A stretch of 64,000 nt of DNA from Escherichia coli (GCF_003018255.1 NZ_CP027440.1), one strand, 5' to 3'; positions 31,401 through 37,400 are shown, numbered from the stretch's first letter. Made by a program: the numbers.

Positions 31401-34400
31401 GTTGCCGCATTGCTATCGAGTGGCCAGGTAAAGTGGTAGAGGCCATTCTCCGGCTGACTAACGACGCTCCTGAGTACCTGCCCGTCGGGTTTAATCACGT
31501 CCAGCTTGACAGGTTGATCGGGCAACGCTTTACCGTCTGCATCACGCAGCAAACCATTGAGGATGACCGTTTCACCCGGGCGATAAAGATCGCGCGGGCC
31601 AAACATGAAAAACTGTTTGCTATAGCCCGGCGCGCCAGCAATGTTAAATTCCGCTAAGTCCAGCGCCGGGAGTTTTAAATCGAGCAGCGTTGTCTGACCG
31701 TTTTTACGCGCCAGCAGTAATGCCGCGTTTTTATCATTTTCCAGCTGCACATGCCCTTGAGCGTCACTGCTTGCCTGAGTCAGAGTCTGCCCTTTCTCAT
31801 TTAATAAAGAGACTTCAATTCCTTGCTGGGCCGCGCCGTTTTCCAGACTTTGGGTAAAGATATCCAGACGATTGTGATAACGGTGAGCTGAAACGCCAAT
31901 ATCACTTAACGTAAACAGCGTCGCGGGATTACTGTAATCGTAACGTCCAGCCTGATTCATCACAGCCAGATACACGCCCGCCTGCTGAAGCGGTTTGATA
32001 TCGCCCAGCGGCAGCAATAATTTTTCACGGGTGTTACGCGCAGGATTGAGATCAAACCGTCCGGTGTAGACCAGATCCGCCATCTGCAGCAGTTTATCTG
32101 ACTGCCAGTTCGCCAGCGAATTGCGGTATTCCCACTGGCTAATGAAAGCGGGCAGTGATTCTGGTTTCACACGGAAGAAGTTAACATCGACATTGTTAAC
32201 GTTAAGCGCCATTACCGGCAGCCCTTCAACGACCTTACCAGGAAGCAACGAACCACGACTGGCAAAACCGACGCTGGGTTGGATATCGCGGGTAGTTATA
32301 GTTTTTTCGTCATCTTTACTAAAGGTTGCGTTATTGAGCGCTTTGACCTCCTTGCCAATAGTGACGATCAAATCACGTTTCGGTTCGAGGTGGCGTAAAC
32401 GCAGCTCTTTAAGATTATCTGACAGCTCCCAGGCACCATCCACTTTGCCGCTTTTTTTATCGACGACATGAATAACGCGTGAGAAATCCTGATCCGGGTC
32501 GAGAGGGATGGAGAACGTCAGCACCAGCGTGGCTGCGCCATCGAGTTGAACTTCAGAGAGATCCAGCAATGTCAGCGCCTTACCGGCACTCTGTTGGGCC
32601 AGTTTTTGTCGCTCCGGCGCGGAAAGTTTTGCTGAACTCACGTTTTCTGAAGAGGCCGCTTTAGTAACTTCAGAAGGCGCATCTTTTTTCACCGCTGTTG
32701 GCGCGTTATCGTTGTTGTCGCACCCTGCCAGCGCCAGCATTAGCATGCAGGCGGCTACGCGTAACTTTTTCATTTTTCATCCCTGCCACAATGGCCCGTT
32801 AGCAACGTCGAATAATTATTATGCGTGAGAATTTACGTTATGTAATTCAGTATCACGCCCATACAATCCGAATTTTAGTGAGAATTGTGGCTCAGACAGC
32901 CAAATCAGCCTCTTTTGCTTGTCGCTTTTCACTAAACATCCGACAATTTAGCCTAACCCCGGCAAAAATGGAGATGCCTATGTCCACGACATGGTTTGTA
33001 GGAGCCGACTGGCTCGCCGAACATATTGATGACCCGGAAATTCAGATTATCGATGCCCGCATGGCGTCGCCTGGACAGGAAGATCGTAACGTTGCTCAGG
33101 AGTATCTGAATGGACATATTCCCGGCGCAGTGTTTTTTGATATCGAAGCGCTTTCTGATCACACTTCTCCGCTTCCGCACATGCTGCCGCGCCCGGAAAC
33201 GTTCGCCGTGGCGATGTGTGAATTAGGCGTTAACCAGGATAAGCACCTGATTGTCTATGACGAAGGTAATCTTTTCTCAGCCCCACGAGCATGGTGGATG
33301 CTGCGCACCTTTGGTGTAGAGAAAGTGTCGATTCTGGGTGGTGGACTTGCAGGCTGGCAGCGTGATGATCTGCTATTAGAAGAAGGCGCAGTAGAGCTGC
33401 CGGAAGGAGAGTTTAACGCCGCGTTTAATCCTGAAGCCGTGGTGAAAGTAACCGATGTGTTATTGGCAAGCCATGAAAATACGGCGCAAATTATCGATGC
33501 CCGCCCGGCTGCACGTTTTAACGCAGAAGTTGATGAACCTCGCCCAGGTTTACGTCGCGGACATATTCCCGGTGCACTAAATGTTCCGTGGACGGAACTG
33601 GTGCGCGAAGGTGAACTAAAAACGACCGATGAACTGGATGCGATATTTTTTGGTCGCGGCGTAAGTTATGACAAACCTATTATCGTCAGCTGCGGCTCTG
33701 GTGTAACGGCAGCCGTGGTTTTGTTGGCACTCGCGACACTTGATGTGCCAAACGTGAAACTGTACGACGGCGCATGGAGTGAATGGGGCGCACGAGCAGA
33801 TTTACCAGTTGAGCCAGAGAAATAAGCTTTTAACAGGCAATAAAAAACCGCCGAATCTGGCGGTTTTTTATTGCTGGTCTGGTTCGCGGCCTTTCCAGCA
33901 GATTGGCTTGTGTTGCATGAGCAACGCAGGTGCTTCACAGCAAAGCAATACTCGCCAGTAACTCTCTTTTTGTCAAGCGAAAGAGAGTAATCATTGTTTA
34001 TTTAGCGTATTATCGACACCGGCCCTTTCCGCCGTGTTCGGTAATAAAATAACCTAGCTTATTAGTCCGAATTCAGACAAATATAAACAAATCCTGCTCA
34101 AAATTAAAAATACTAACCGGTAAAAGATATTACTTAAACATGTAAATTCACTTTCCTTTAAAAAACAAAAAACCGCCAAAATCAGGCGGTTATTTGTTGC
34201 TGGTTTGGTTCGCGGCCTTTCCAGCAGATTGTATTACCGTAGTAATGCAAGCGCGTCTCAGCGGACACAATACTCGCCAGTAACTCTCTTTTTGTCAAGT
34301 AAAAGAGAGTTATTATTGTTCTGTTAGTGTATTATCCACTGCGGACCTTTCCGCCGTCTCGCAAGCGGGCGCTGGCTTAAGGAAAGGATGTTCCGCGACC

Positions 34401-37400
34401 GTTAGAGCAAGCGCGTCTCAGCGCTTGCTATCGCGGCAATATCGCCAGTGGTGCTGTCGTGATGCGGTCTTCGCATGGACCGCACAATGAAGATACGGTG
34501 CTTTTGTATCGTACTTATTGTTTCTGGTGCGCTGTTAAGCGAGGTAAATAATAACCGGAGTCTCTCCGGCAACAATTTACTGGCGGTTAACAACCTTCAG
34601 AGCAGCAAGTAAGCCCGAATGCCGCCCTTTGGGGCGGCATATTTTAGATTATCCGGTTCTGTTTAAAGTCACGCAAAAAACCACCCCAGCGACGTTCATA
34701 GAATGGCGCAATATGTTCGGTAATAAAGTGGCTAATTCCTTTTTCCCCTTTTTTCACCTGACAAATATCGATGGGTTCATCGCCAGGTAATGTATCGGTC
34801 GCTACACTTCCCGCCGCCTGAATAATTTCTTCGATATCACCATCGGCTTCAATGCCAATAAGTAAATTAGGCTGTGCCTCTTCGTTCTCTTTAATTGAAC
34901 AAATAAAAGCACGCTTCACCGGCTTAATAGTTTTAAATAAGGTGGTGAGTGAATCAATCATTTGTGCTGGTGGCTCTGCGACTTCCGATAATATCAGCGA
35001 TTCACCGCCTTCCAGTACTTCCTGGCTGCTCAGCGGATTTCCTTCTTCACCAATCAGCAAACTGATTTCACGCGGCATAAATTCTTTACCGGTTGGCAGT
35101 TTGGCATTAAGGAAGAGCGTTTCGCCAAGGGTCATCTCAAACAATGTGCGAACGGGCATTACGACAAATGCCTGTTCGTCTTCAACCGCCTGTTGAAGTG
35201 CTTCTAACGAGGTAAAAAAAGGAATGACGCTGGTGCCGTCTTCTTTTTCCCAGTGCTGTAAATCAAGCGCGCTATCTTCAACCACAGCCTCGCCCTGCGC
35301 CGCCGTACCCGGCACCCAGACGGTGGATTCCAGTAGAGTACGGAAAAAGGCCGGGCGGTGCGCCGGTTCGGTTGCTGCTTTTTCCAGCAGGTCTTCAAGT
35401 TCGTTTTTTGTTTCGGACATAAGAACCACAATTCATTCAACGTTCGGGGCACAAGTGCCTGATGCGCTACGCTTATCAGGCCTACAAGGGAATCTCAATC
35501 TATTGGATTTTCGCAATTTTGTAGGCCAAATAAGACGTTTACGCCGTTAACAGATTAGCAATCGTGCGCACACCTAGCCCGGTCGCGCCCGCAGACCACT
35601 GTTCAACCGGCGCTTTACGGTAAGTCGCCGAGCAGTCGATATGCAGCCAGCCTTGCTGATAGTTCTCAACAAAGTGCGACAGGAAGCCCGCCGCCGTGCT
35701 TGCACCTGCCGGATACGCCGCGCTTCCGGTATTGTTCAGTTCGGCAAAGTTAGACGGCAGCTGGCTGCGGTGGAACTCCGCCAGCGGCAGACGCCAGAAT
35801 GGTTCATTCTCCTGCGCGGCACTCGCCAGCAAGCGAGCGGCAAGCGCATCGTCAAAACTGAACAGCGCGTGATAATCATTACCCAGCGCGGTTTTCGCCG
35901 CCCCGGTGAGGGTCGCCGCATCAATGATCAGTTCCGGTTTCTGCGCACTGGCATCAATCAGGCCATCGGCCAGCACCAGACGCCCTTCCGCATCGGTGTT
36001 CATCACTTCAACTTTTTTACCGTTGCGATAGGTAATGATATCGCCCAGCTTGAACGCATTGCCGCTGATCAGGTTATCCGCACAGCAGAGGAACAGCTTC
36101 ACGCGCTTGTTCAGTCCGCGCGTAATGGCAAACGCCAGCGCTCCGGTAACCGTTGCCGCGCCGCCCATGTCCGACTTCATCGAGTCCATAAATGCGGTCT
36201 GTTTGATACTGTAGCCGCCGGAATCAAAGGTGATGCCTTTACCAACCAGGCACGCGTACACTGGCGCTTCTTTATCGCCTGTTGGGTTGTAATCCAGCGC
36301 CAGCAATACCGGGGAACGTTCTGAACCGCGCCCGACCGTGTGCAGCCCCATATAACCTTGATCACGCAGATCTTCGCCTTTGGTGATCCGGTAAGTCACA
36401 CGATCGCCCGCGACGTTGCTGATCAGATCAACAGCACGCTGTGCCAGTTGCGATGGCCCCAGTTCTTCCGCCGGTGCGTTGATGGTGTCACGCACCCAGT
36501 CGATGATCATCAGGCGGTTATCCAGTTCCTGCCGTTGGGCATCGTCCAGATCCGGCCACTCCACTTTACGTGTGCCTTTCGGGGCTTTGTAACCTTGCCA
36601 GAATGCCCAGCAGCGATCCGCATCCCAGTCTTCACCGCTTAACTGAACATGCTTGATGCCCAGACCGTCAATCTTGCGCGCCGCACGCTGGATCAGCCCC
36701 AGATCGTCTGTCCCGTTCAAATGCAGGGTAATGCCATCATTATTAATGCTGTAAGTCGCTTTTTCTCCCCAGCGCGCGTCGGCAGGTTGGGTAGAAAGGG
36801 TAATTTTCATCGCTTCTGTCATTTTAGTTATCCTTATTCGTTTAACAGCAAAACGGGCTACCCCCAGGCAGCCCGTTCATTCACTCGGCTTCGTCCAGCC
36901 AGACCAACAAAATCGCTTCGAGGATTTTCTCGTTCGATGCCTGCGGGTCGTCGTCGAAATCTTCCAGATCGCAAATCCACTGATGCATATCGGTGAATCG
37001 AACCGTTTTCGGATCAAGATCGGGATACGCATCGTACAGTGCTTCGCCAATTTCGCGGCTATCGGTCCACTTAAGTCCCATACTAACCTCTGTTAATGCT
37101 CACGCGCATGGTTGATAGTGTAACGCGGGATTTCGACCACTAAATCTTCGTCGGTAACGCGCGCCTGGCAGCTTAAACGGCTTTCCGGCTCCAGTCCCCA
37201 GGCTTTGTCCAGCATGTCGTCTTCCTGCTCTGAGCTTTCCGGCAGCGAGTCAAAACCTTCGCGAACGATGCAGTGGCAGGTGGTGCAAGCACAGGATTTT
37301 TCACAGGCGTGTTCAATCTCGATACCGTTACGCAGCGCAACGTCGAGAATGGTTTCACCACTATTCGCTTCCAGAACAGCGCCATCAGGGCAGAGATCCT

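Follow-up and report, generated by a model that had tools for sequence, protein, structure and literature searches.

The spacer between sseA and sseB (positions 33826-34643) in a stretch of Escherichia coli DNA of 64,000 nucleotides (nt) (GCF_003018255.1 NZ_CP027440.1; hereinafter the window, with positions counted from its first letter) is very likely to be a timPR locus, similar to type I toxin-antitoxin systems, in which a single toxin gene, timP, is accompanied by two antitoxin genes, namely a proximal timR (TimR-B), the cognate partner of this timP, and a distal timR (TimR-A), an orphan. The components of this system are already known: ryfA is the timP mRNA, the small open reading frame (ORF) that it carries encodes TimP, and timR is the antisense repressor, all annotated in K-12. 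What appears to be undescribed is the second gene of the TimR family along with a swap of the cognate partner between strains, a modest twist on a known system. No description of a second E. coli timR copy was found in the literature covered, which did not extend to figures and some supplements, so that an earlier mention is possible. The anatomy, family membership, complementarity and population distribution of the locus come from sequence analysis, from which expression, repression and toxicity in this strain are extrapolated.

The timP mRNA and the TimP protein

The toxin gene occupies the sseB side of the spacer and comprises the following features:

34330-34335, plus strand: -10 element TATTAT of the timP promoter, 7 nt upstream of the start of the Rfam ryfA match and conserved in all species compared
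34341-34645, plus strand: timP mRNA, historically the "RyfA sRNA" (Rfam RF00126, 312.5 bits, model positions 1-296 of 296)
34370-34376, plus strand: 5' half (CGCUGGC) of the SL1-SL3 pseudoknot, complementary to 34444-34450 (putative role after PMC11228461)
34407-34423, plus strand: predicted TimR-B binding site, the "variable region" in the untranslated 5' region (5'UTR) of timP, an exact repeat of the TimR-B seed
34444-34450, plus strand: 3' half (GCCAGUG) of the SL1-SL3 pseudoknot (putative role after PMC11228461)
34487-34612, plus strand: timP ORF of 41 amino acids, encoding a small protein of the inner membrane whose N-terminus is signal-like (NF040796 match, PGAP annotation and conservation)
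34619-34640, plus strand: intrinsic terminator of timP, a stem of 9 base pairs (bp), of which 7 are G-C, with a T-run behind it

The gathering score of RF00126 is 80 bits, and relaxing the filters and admitting matches up to E ≤ 1 still gives the model no match in 33826-34340. The translation of the ORF at 34487-34612 (MKIRCFCIVLIVSGALLSEVNNNRSLSGNNLLAVNNLQSSK) matches the NCBIfam model NF040796 (toxic_TimP) over residues 1-40 with 80.5 bits, against a curated cut-off of 45, and the ORF is annotated as timP by RefSeq in essentially every complete E. coli genome, including that of MG1655 (timP b4812, beside ryfA b4440). The protein is kept at 38-41 amino acids in Escherichia, Citrobacter, Salmonella and Superficieibacter, with an invariant N-terminus, MK(I)R..C..L.VSG. 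This 41-codon ORF on the ryfA mRNA is that of TimP, a type I toxin already known and annotated. A preliminary description of the region had recognized both this ORF and the strong terminator behind it and had likened the transcript to a type I toxin mRNA with a small hydrophobic ORF, which the model score, the RefSeq annotation and the conservation across four genera bear out; its concern that the ORF might not be conserved in ryfA homologues does not materialize.

In Salmonella, TimP is a toxic inner-membrane protein, and the divergently transcribed small RNA (sRNA) TimR represses the timP mRNA through pairing of its 5' end with the 5'UTR (PMC7667032), which destabilizes a pseudoknot required for timP translation (PMC11228461); this repression has been demonstrated both in vivo and in vitro (PMC7667032; PMC11228461). 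The corresponding elements of the window are similarly placed: the ORF starts approximately 145 nt downstream of the mRNA start, as in Salmonella (PMC7667032), and the site at 34407-34423 lies more than 60 nt upstream of the timP start codon, as it does there. The two pseudoknot halves show a compensatory change of the pair in Salmonella and in Citrobacter MGH106.

The two timR antitoxin genes

The remainder of the spacer is dominated by two minus-strand genes and the sequences shared between them:

33839-33943, minus strand: distal timR (TimR-A), full-length match to model R1 (85.1 bits, E 1.5e-15), orthologue of K-12 timR b4811
33948-33976, minus strand: predicted distal timR promoter, -35 TTGACA (33971-33976), 17-nt spacer, -10 GAGTAT (33948-33953)
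34164-34264, minus strand: proximal timR (TimR-B), full-length match to model R1 (91.9 bits, E 6e-17), with a terminator at 34171-34191 (minus strand)
34270-34298, minus strand: predicted proximal timR promoter, -35 TTGACA (34293-34298), -10 GAGTAT (34270-34275)
33837-33874, both strands: bidirectional intrinsic terminator with perfectly complementary 16-nt arms (GCAATAAAAAACCGCC/GGCGGTTTTTTATTGC), predicted to end sseA (plus strand) and distal timR (minus strand)
34281-34312 (also 33961-33988), unstranded: 12-bp perfect palindrome centred on the timR -35 element, between the divergent transcription starts
34036-34167, unstranded: AT-rich spacer, the body of the Rfam "IS128" match, 132 nt with 27% G+C (flanks 45-54%)

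The covariance model R1 was derived from the TimR regions of sseB-flanking loci collected from other species, exclusively Citrobacter, Salmonella and Superficieibacter, with no Escherichia sequence included. Both window copies are matched over the full length of the model, and the third-best match in the entire window scores only 13.9 bits. No Rfam family matches the TimR units; minus-strand matches of the distal copy to AgrB (27.8 bits), RNAI and the rimP leader fall below the gathering scores, are driven by the terminator hairpin and were treated as chance.

The TimR structure is well maintained, with 96.3% of the cells paired across 21 distinct sequences and compensatory G-C to A-U changes in helix 3, whereas several one-sided changes are of the G-C to G-U type and are compatible with pairing solely in the minus-strand RNA. 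The first stem-loop of the two window copies itself differs by compensatory changes (GUUGC/GCAAC versus AUUAC/GUAAU), and both folds are more stable than shuffled controls (z = -4.1 for TimR-A and -3.2 for TimR-B); the hairpin at 33837-33874 is the 3' hairpin of the predicted TimR-A fold. A 32-nt minus-strand promoter block with a perfect TTGACA -35 element is identical in the two copies. In K-12, the 5' end mapped for the proximal copy is 6 nt downstream of the -10 element, and the position of the distal promoter is consistent with this arrangement. Transcripts of approximately 100 nt are documented for the K-12 and CFT073 orthologues, and both window copies possess the -35 element, a weak -10 element and the terminator hairpin.

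These genes account for the tandem repeat in the spacer, which lies essentially where the preliminary description had placed it. Two families of direct repeats (33842-33905 versus 34168-34231, 64 nt, 86% identity; 33946-34035 versus 34268-34357, 90 nt, 87% identity) recur with a period of 322-326 nt, and pairwise alignment joins them into a single continuous unit of approximately 195 nt (33842-34035 and 34168-34357) with its 3' limit exactly at ...CCTTTCCGCCGT. What is duplicated is the minus-strand timR together with the divergent promoters that it shares with timP and the initial 17 nt of timP itself. Each unit opens with a CCGCC...GGCGG hairpin (33837-33874 and 34171-34191), which agrees with the earlier observation of an sseA-type terminator ahead of each copy; the divergence of the first copy into AT-rich sequence was likewise correctly noted, the G+C content being 27% after 34035. 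The two copies had, however, been taken for ryfA-like. The repeated unit reaches 17 nt into ryfA and then stops, so the first copy is not a ryfA copy, and the ryfA model matches 34341-34645 only; the second copy as originally delimited (34193-34617) merges a timR unit (to 34357) with ryfA/timP (from 34341). A paralogous regulatory RNA gene does exist, as had been suspected, but the candidate regulator is a full-length antitoxin paralogue (timR) on the minus strand rather than a truncated plus-strand toxin mRNA.

The hairpin that had been noticed in the conserved core is the 12-bp palindrome (34281-34312). With start positions taken from the start of the ryfA model and the 5' end of K-12 TimR, it falls between the two divergent transcription starts and so would be transcribed by neither gene. 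The palindrome could be an operator for some regulator. Other species retain an inverted repeat at this position, with a different spacing.

Seed specificity of TimR-A and TimR-B

The two antitoxin genes differ in the segment that pairs with the target:

33926-33942, minus strand: TimR-A seed (5' end); the plus strand reads GCAGGTGCTTCACAGCA
34247-34263, minus strand: TimR-B seed; the plus strand reads GCAAGCGCGTCTCAGCG

The seeds are identical at 12 of 17 positions. Read on the plus strand, the 17 nt of the TimR-B seed recur exactly at 34407-34423 in the timP 5'UTR, so that TimR-B and the timP site of the window form 17 contiguous Watson-Crick pairs (-37.3 kcal/mol; all energies are for site-limited RNA duplexes, with shuffled sites as the control). 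With the same site, TimR-A reaches -16.4 kcal/mol in Watson-Crick runs of at most 6 pairs, a value inside the shuffled range (mean -12.5, first percentile -20.2), which makes TimR-A non-cognate for this timP. With the timP site of K-12 and CFT073 (GCAGGTGTTTCACAGCG), TimR-A yields -35.2 kcal/mol. Energies from full-length RNAduplex runs of TimR versus 160 nt of timP were inflated by huge interior loops and were discarded. Only the proximal TimR-B matches the timP mRNA of this strain; the distal TimR-A does not.

Specificity of this kind has experimental precedent at related loci. Compensatory seed mutants in Salmonella prove TimR-timP pairing at this site (PMC7667032), and in Shigella dysenteriae, RyfB1 reduced the level of RyfA1, its cognate partner, whereas RyfA2, with a different sequence in the same region, was not reduced (PMC5333039). 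It is nevertheless conceivable that TimR-A and TimR-B are redundant antitoxins that both repress the timP of this strain: the scaffold outside the seed is common to the two, TimR-A forms 13 of 17 pairs at the site in a hand alignment that tolerates mismatches, and the non-cognate TimR-timP pair of K-12 reaches -25.4 kcal/mol, which renders some cross-talk plausible. We consider such redundancy very unlikely: the TimR-A duplex is no better than those with shuffled sites, in S. dysenteriae a similar difference between seeds left the non-cognate RyfA unaffected (PMC5333039), and in Salmonella rescue was lost when a few bases of the seed were mutated (PMC7667032). A search for other TimR-A targets in the window yielded one 14/17 match, inside hisS, which is at the chance level.

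By analogy with Salmonella, TimR-B would bind the timP 5'UTR, destabilize the SL1-SL3 pseudoknot and block the synthesis of TimP, and the complementarity points to TimR-B as the working repressor in this strain. TimR-A, in turn, would be an orphan, its gene intact and probably still expressed, for which the locus shows no evident cognate target.

Swapped partners in K-12 and distribution among E. coli genomes

K-12 has the same two-unit layout, with 95% identity over 921 nt. The expectation that it carries a single ryfA is correct, but the two-unit layout is present there too and is, accordingly, not special to the strain analysed here. In the extracted MG1655 locus, the annotated distal timR is found at 957-1056 and an unannotated proximal unit at about 1309-1409. 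The timP site of K-12 is of the A type, and its annotated partner, timR b4811 (2653356-2653455), is the distal unit; the proximal unit, known as ECS011, is mismatched to timP, expressed and unannotated in MG1655. Judged from the seed and site sequences, the roles of the two partners are thus swapped, the distal TimR being cognate in K-12 and the proximal one in the window.

The distribution of the individual features was assessed in 5426 complete genomes, as marginal counts for each feature rather than joint genotypes:

two-unit spacer: 2157 of 5426 genomes (about 40%)
B-type timR: 4549 of 5426
A-type timR: about 2108 of 5426
B-type timP site: 2990 of 5426
A-type timP site: 1975 of 5426
more than one timP: about 3% of the genomes

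The recurrence of the two-unit layout in some 2150 complete E. coli genomes indicates that it is not due to chance, and the marginal counts imply that timR-B occurs in the absence of a B-type site in no fewer than about 1550 genomes. The K-12 alleles occur in about 1650-1700 genomes (1716 with the timR-A allele and 1643 with the timP-site allele at 99% identity or more). The combination found in the window (A distal, B proximal, timP-B) is rare, at about 1-2%, with 74 genomes showing 99% identity or more across all 921 nt.

Expression of orthologues and the nature of IS128

The K-12 orthologue of the proximal gene is ECS011/IS129, for which an RNA-seq contig starting with 5'-CCGCUGAGACGCGCUUGC... 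and Northern bands of about 95-100 nt were reported in 2011 (PMC3175480); the 5' end of the contig is as predicted for proximal timR. For the distal gene, the relevant comparison is with CFT073, the TimR of which has been detected by Northern blotting (PMC13188913): the distal unit of the window is identical to the only timR unit of CFT073 at 209 of 210 positions.

The intervening DNA is the subject of a separate Rfam family, RF00125 (IS128), which matches 34001-34209 on the plus strand over its full length with 258 bits. This match begins near a remnant of a second toxin gene:

34008-34035, plus strand: stub of the deleted timP-A, with the -10 element TATTAT (34008-34013) and the first approximately 17 nt of the mRNA (34019-34035)

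The first copy could be read, in line with the preliminary description, as a truncated plus-strand paralogue of ryfA, with an "IS128" transcript running from the promoter at 34008-34013 to 34171-34191 and regulating ryfA or other genes. The retention of a timP-type -10 element and of the first 17 transcript nucleotides, a plus-strand hairpin with some T residues downstream of the stub, and the status of IS128 as an Rfam sRNA family with a high-scoring match are compatible with this possibility. However, these 17 nt are all that the copy has in common with ryfA, the remainder being the AT-rich spacer; the plus-strand T-tract after the hairpin is interrupted in this strain (ATTTGTTG); and the covariation and the G-U changes described above fit a minus-strand RNA. 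Moreover, the plus-strand IS128 RNA of K-12 was not detected by strand-specific Northern probes, and the authors concluded that it was either an artefact or condition-specific (PMC3175480). The probe of the original IS128 blot was double-stranded and would also detect the minus-strand TimR-B (PMC3175480). What that blot registered was probably the antisense TimR-B, and the IS128 family may describe DNA that harbours no plus-strand RNA gene. A regulatory IS128 transcript is very unlikely, and the timP-A stub on the plus strand would not be a regulator.

A more serious alternative holds that the distal unit is a silent relic of a collapsed duplication, untranscribed, free of selection and eventually lost by recombination between the repeats. 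The two-unit spacer is missing from about 60% of E. coli genomes, the short forms resemble products of inter-repeat recombination, and the locus of this strain provides no cognate target for TimR-A. The promoter, the seed, both stem-loops and the terminator of the distal unit are, however, all intact, and its model score of 85 bits is comparable to those of bona fide single-copy TimRs (88-102 bits). It is nearly identical to the expressed CFT073 allele, and the substitutions between the K-12 and window alleles preserve pairing through G-U in the RNA sense. For the timP of the 1650-1700 or so K-12-like genomes, no partner other than the distal unit is well matched, and it is this copy that the MG1655 curators annotate as timR. 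Taken together, these features make a silent relic doubtful, and a locus with a cognate TimR-B and an intact orphan TimR-A remains the preferred interpretation.

Several observations weigh against that interpretation. Small-RNA sequencing of K-12 lists no candidate at the distal copy, where the low-read microarray candidate C0614 alone overlaps the 5' end in K-12, so that the distal copy may be weakly expressed in the two-unit context. The transcript evidence comes from the K-12 and CFT073 orthologues and not from this strain. The timR -10 element, GAGTAT, is a weak match to the consensus, and a promoter scan made no call there; the identity of the promoter blocks could reflect recent gene conversion rather than selection. 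Finally, deletion of timR in avian pathogenic E. coli (APEC) had little effect, and ryfA start-codon mutants still complemented (PMC13188913), so that neither the peptide nor timR seems to be needed for the ryfA phenotypes. The transcript ryfA may therefore act mainly as an RNA in APEC, and the toxin role is tentative in E. coli.

Origin and variation of the locus

The strain EC488 carries what resembles the fuller form of the locus: timR-B/timP-B is followed by an 87-bp fragment of the sseB 3' end, the AT-rich spacer and then timR-A/timP-A, both pairs being complete. The EC488 counterpart of the distal unit of the window continues into a complete timP-A, and the EC488 sseB fragment ends in GTTCGGTAATAAA and is followed by the same spacer as in the window. 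The junction left in the window is recognizable:

34035-34048, plus strand: deletion junction, with timP +17 joined to the end of the sseB 3' fragment (TGTTCGGTAATAAA), identical to sseB 34714-34727 (exact 14-mer)

The sequence comparison indicates that timP-A was lost from the window by a deletion that joined timP +17 (34035/34036) to the GTTCGGTAATAAA of the old sseB fragment. The present layout probably arose when a [timR-timP-sseB 3' end] unit was duplicated in tandem; deletion and recombination among alleles that differ in specificity came afterwards. The possibility that the AT-rich spacer is decayed sseB was rejected: only the junction 14-mer matches, and the EC488 sseB fragment stops at the start of the spacer. 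Local alignment of the AT-rich spacer with the sseA-timR spacers of Salmonella and Citrobacter was no better than with shuffled sequences in 7 of 8 species, and the alignment with S. diarizonae was marginal (2 of 300 shuffles).

Short forms with a single unit (L002, CFT073 and O157:H7 among them) exist, as do forms of other types (C and D), which identifies the locus as a recombination hot spot that reshuffles toxin and antitoxin alleles.

In E. coli strain 1190, an IS200/IS605 transposase gene lies between sseA and a type-D distal timR (locus coordinates 350-808 and 927-1415); the timP site of this strain, also of type D, matches the distal copy and not the A-like proximal one, a crossed arrangement as in K-12. 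E. coli SCU-115 (about 1171-1256) lacks precisely the terminator hairpin shared by sseA and timR (AAGCTTTTTATTGCTGG); its type-C timR is left without a terminator, and the model score falls to 57.7 bits. In Citrobacter amalonaticus (about 3993-4099) and Salmonella enterica subsp. arizonae (about 3993-4092), timR is fused into the timP 5'UTR at the seed/target repeat, and both fused loci lack the two promoters and the first approximately 64 nt of timP. They look like deletions produced by recombination between seed and target, which would inactivate the locus.

Relationship to other systems and implications

The closest characterized relative is timP/TimR of Salmonella enterica Typhimurium, which is found in the same sseB neighbourhood and includes a homologous ryfA mRNA with a protein of 38-41 amino acids, a divergent sRNA of about 100 nt, the 5' end of which pairs with 17-18 nt of the 5'UTR at a site over 60 nt upstream of the start codon, and the pseudoknot halves that are present in the window too (Andresen et al. 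2020, PMC7667032; PNAS 2024, PMC11228461). Salmonella possesses one timR, whereas the window has two with different seeds, one of them matching; toxicity and repression have been demonstrated in Salmonella, whereas the system of the window is known from its sequence. The ryfA1/ryfB1 and ryfA2/ryfB2 genes of Shigella dysenteriae (Fris et al. 2017, PMC5333039) lie at the same locus as a tandem duplication whose two RyfB/TimR paralogues differ in specificity. Comparison with the published probe sequences assigns RyfA2/RyfB2 to the A type, as in the window and K-12, and RyfA1/RyfB1 to type C. Both Shigella pairs (types C and A) are complete, whereas in the window one toxin has been deleted and the surviving pair is of type B, which is outside the scope of that paper. 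K-12 MG1655, with timR b4811, ryfA b4440, timP b4812, IS128/IS129/ECS011 and C0614, shares the two-unit layout with the cognate roles reversed.

In zorO-orzO/zorP-orzP and ibs/Sib, type I loci of several copies with copy-specific antitoxins, the toxin-antitoxin RNA pairs are likewise paralogous and arranged in tandem, with specificity set by a short variable stretch of pairing; these loci keep equal numbers of toxins and antitoxins. Unlike these, the window retains an antitoxin that persists without its toxin, and the alleles are shuffled between strains.

The K-12 sRNA long listed as IS129/ECS011 is a second TimR, and two timR genes that differ in seed are present in many strains of E. coli. 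A single timR or ryfA deletion in E. coli may therefore leave behind a second, partly cross-reactive antitoxin, which could help to explain the mild timR phenotypes. The alleles also provide a natural series of seeds and targets for studying the evolution of type I antitoxin specificity. A broader and speculative proposition, which we regard as unlikely, is that E. coli keeps TimR/timP polymorphic in specificity, with no fewer than the four types A, B, C and D, which recombination at the hot spot reshuffles, and that the spare, expressed but non-matching TimR in about 40% of the strains is retained for its function. If so, the spare TimR would either act in trans on other mRNAs or neutralize an incoming timP allele of another type. 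In APEC, loss of ryfA is harmful only when timR is present (PMC13188913), a result that a trans-acting spare TimR would fit.

Neighbouring genes and minor features

The spacer is bordered by two protein-coding genes:

32980-33825, plus strand: sseA (3-mercaptopyruvate sulfurtransferase), left border (ORF list and RefSeq annotation of matching loci)
34644-35420, minus strand: sseB, right border, convergent with timP (ORF list and RefSeq)

A 41-codon ORF with a TTG start (34054-34179, minus strand), located inside the AT-rich spacer and downstream of the proximal timR terminator, is probably spurious. Between sseB and pepB, palindromes resembling repetitive extragenic palindromic elements (GCCTGATGCGCTACGCTTATCAGGCCTAC...) are found at 35440-35530, and 35478-35520 is a sub-threshold match to the Rfam family ES036. 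The sseB-pepB segment (34644-37000) is only about 95% identical to that of K-12 but 99-100% identical to those of a few strains (DETEC-S792 and 98227); the lineage of the window is therefore fairly distant from K-12 at this locus.

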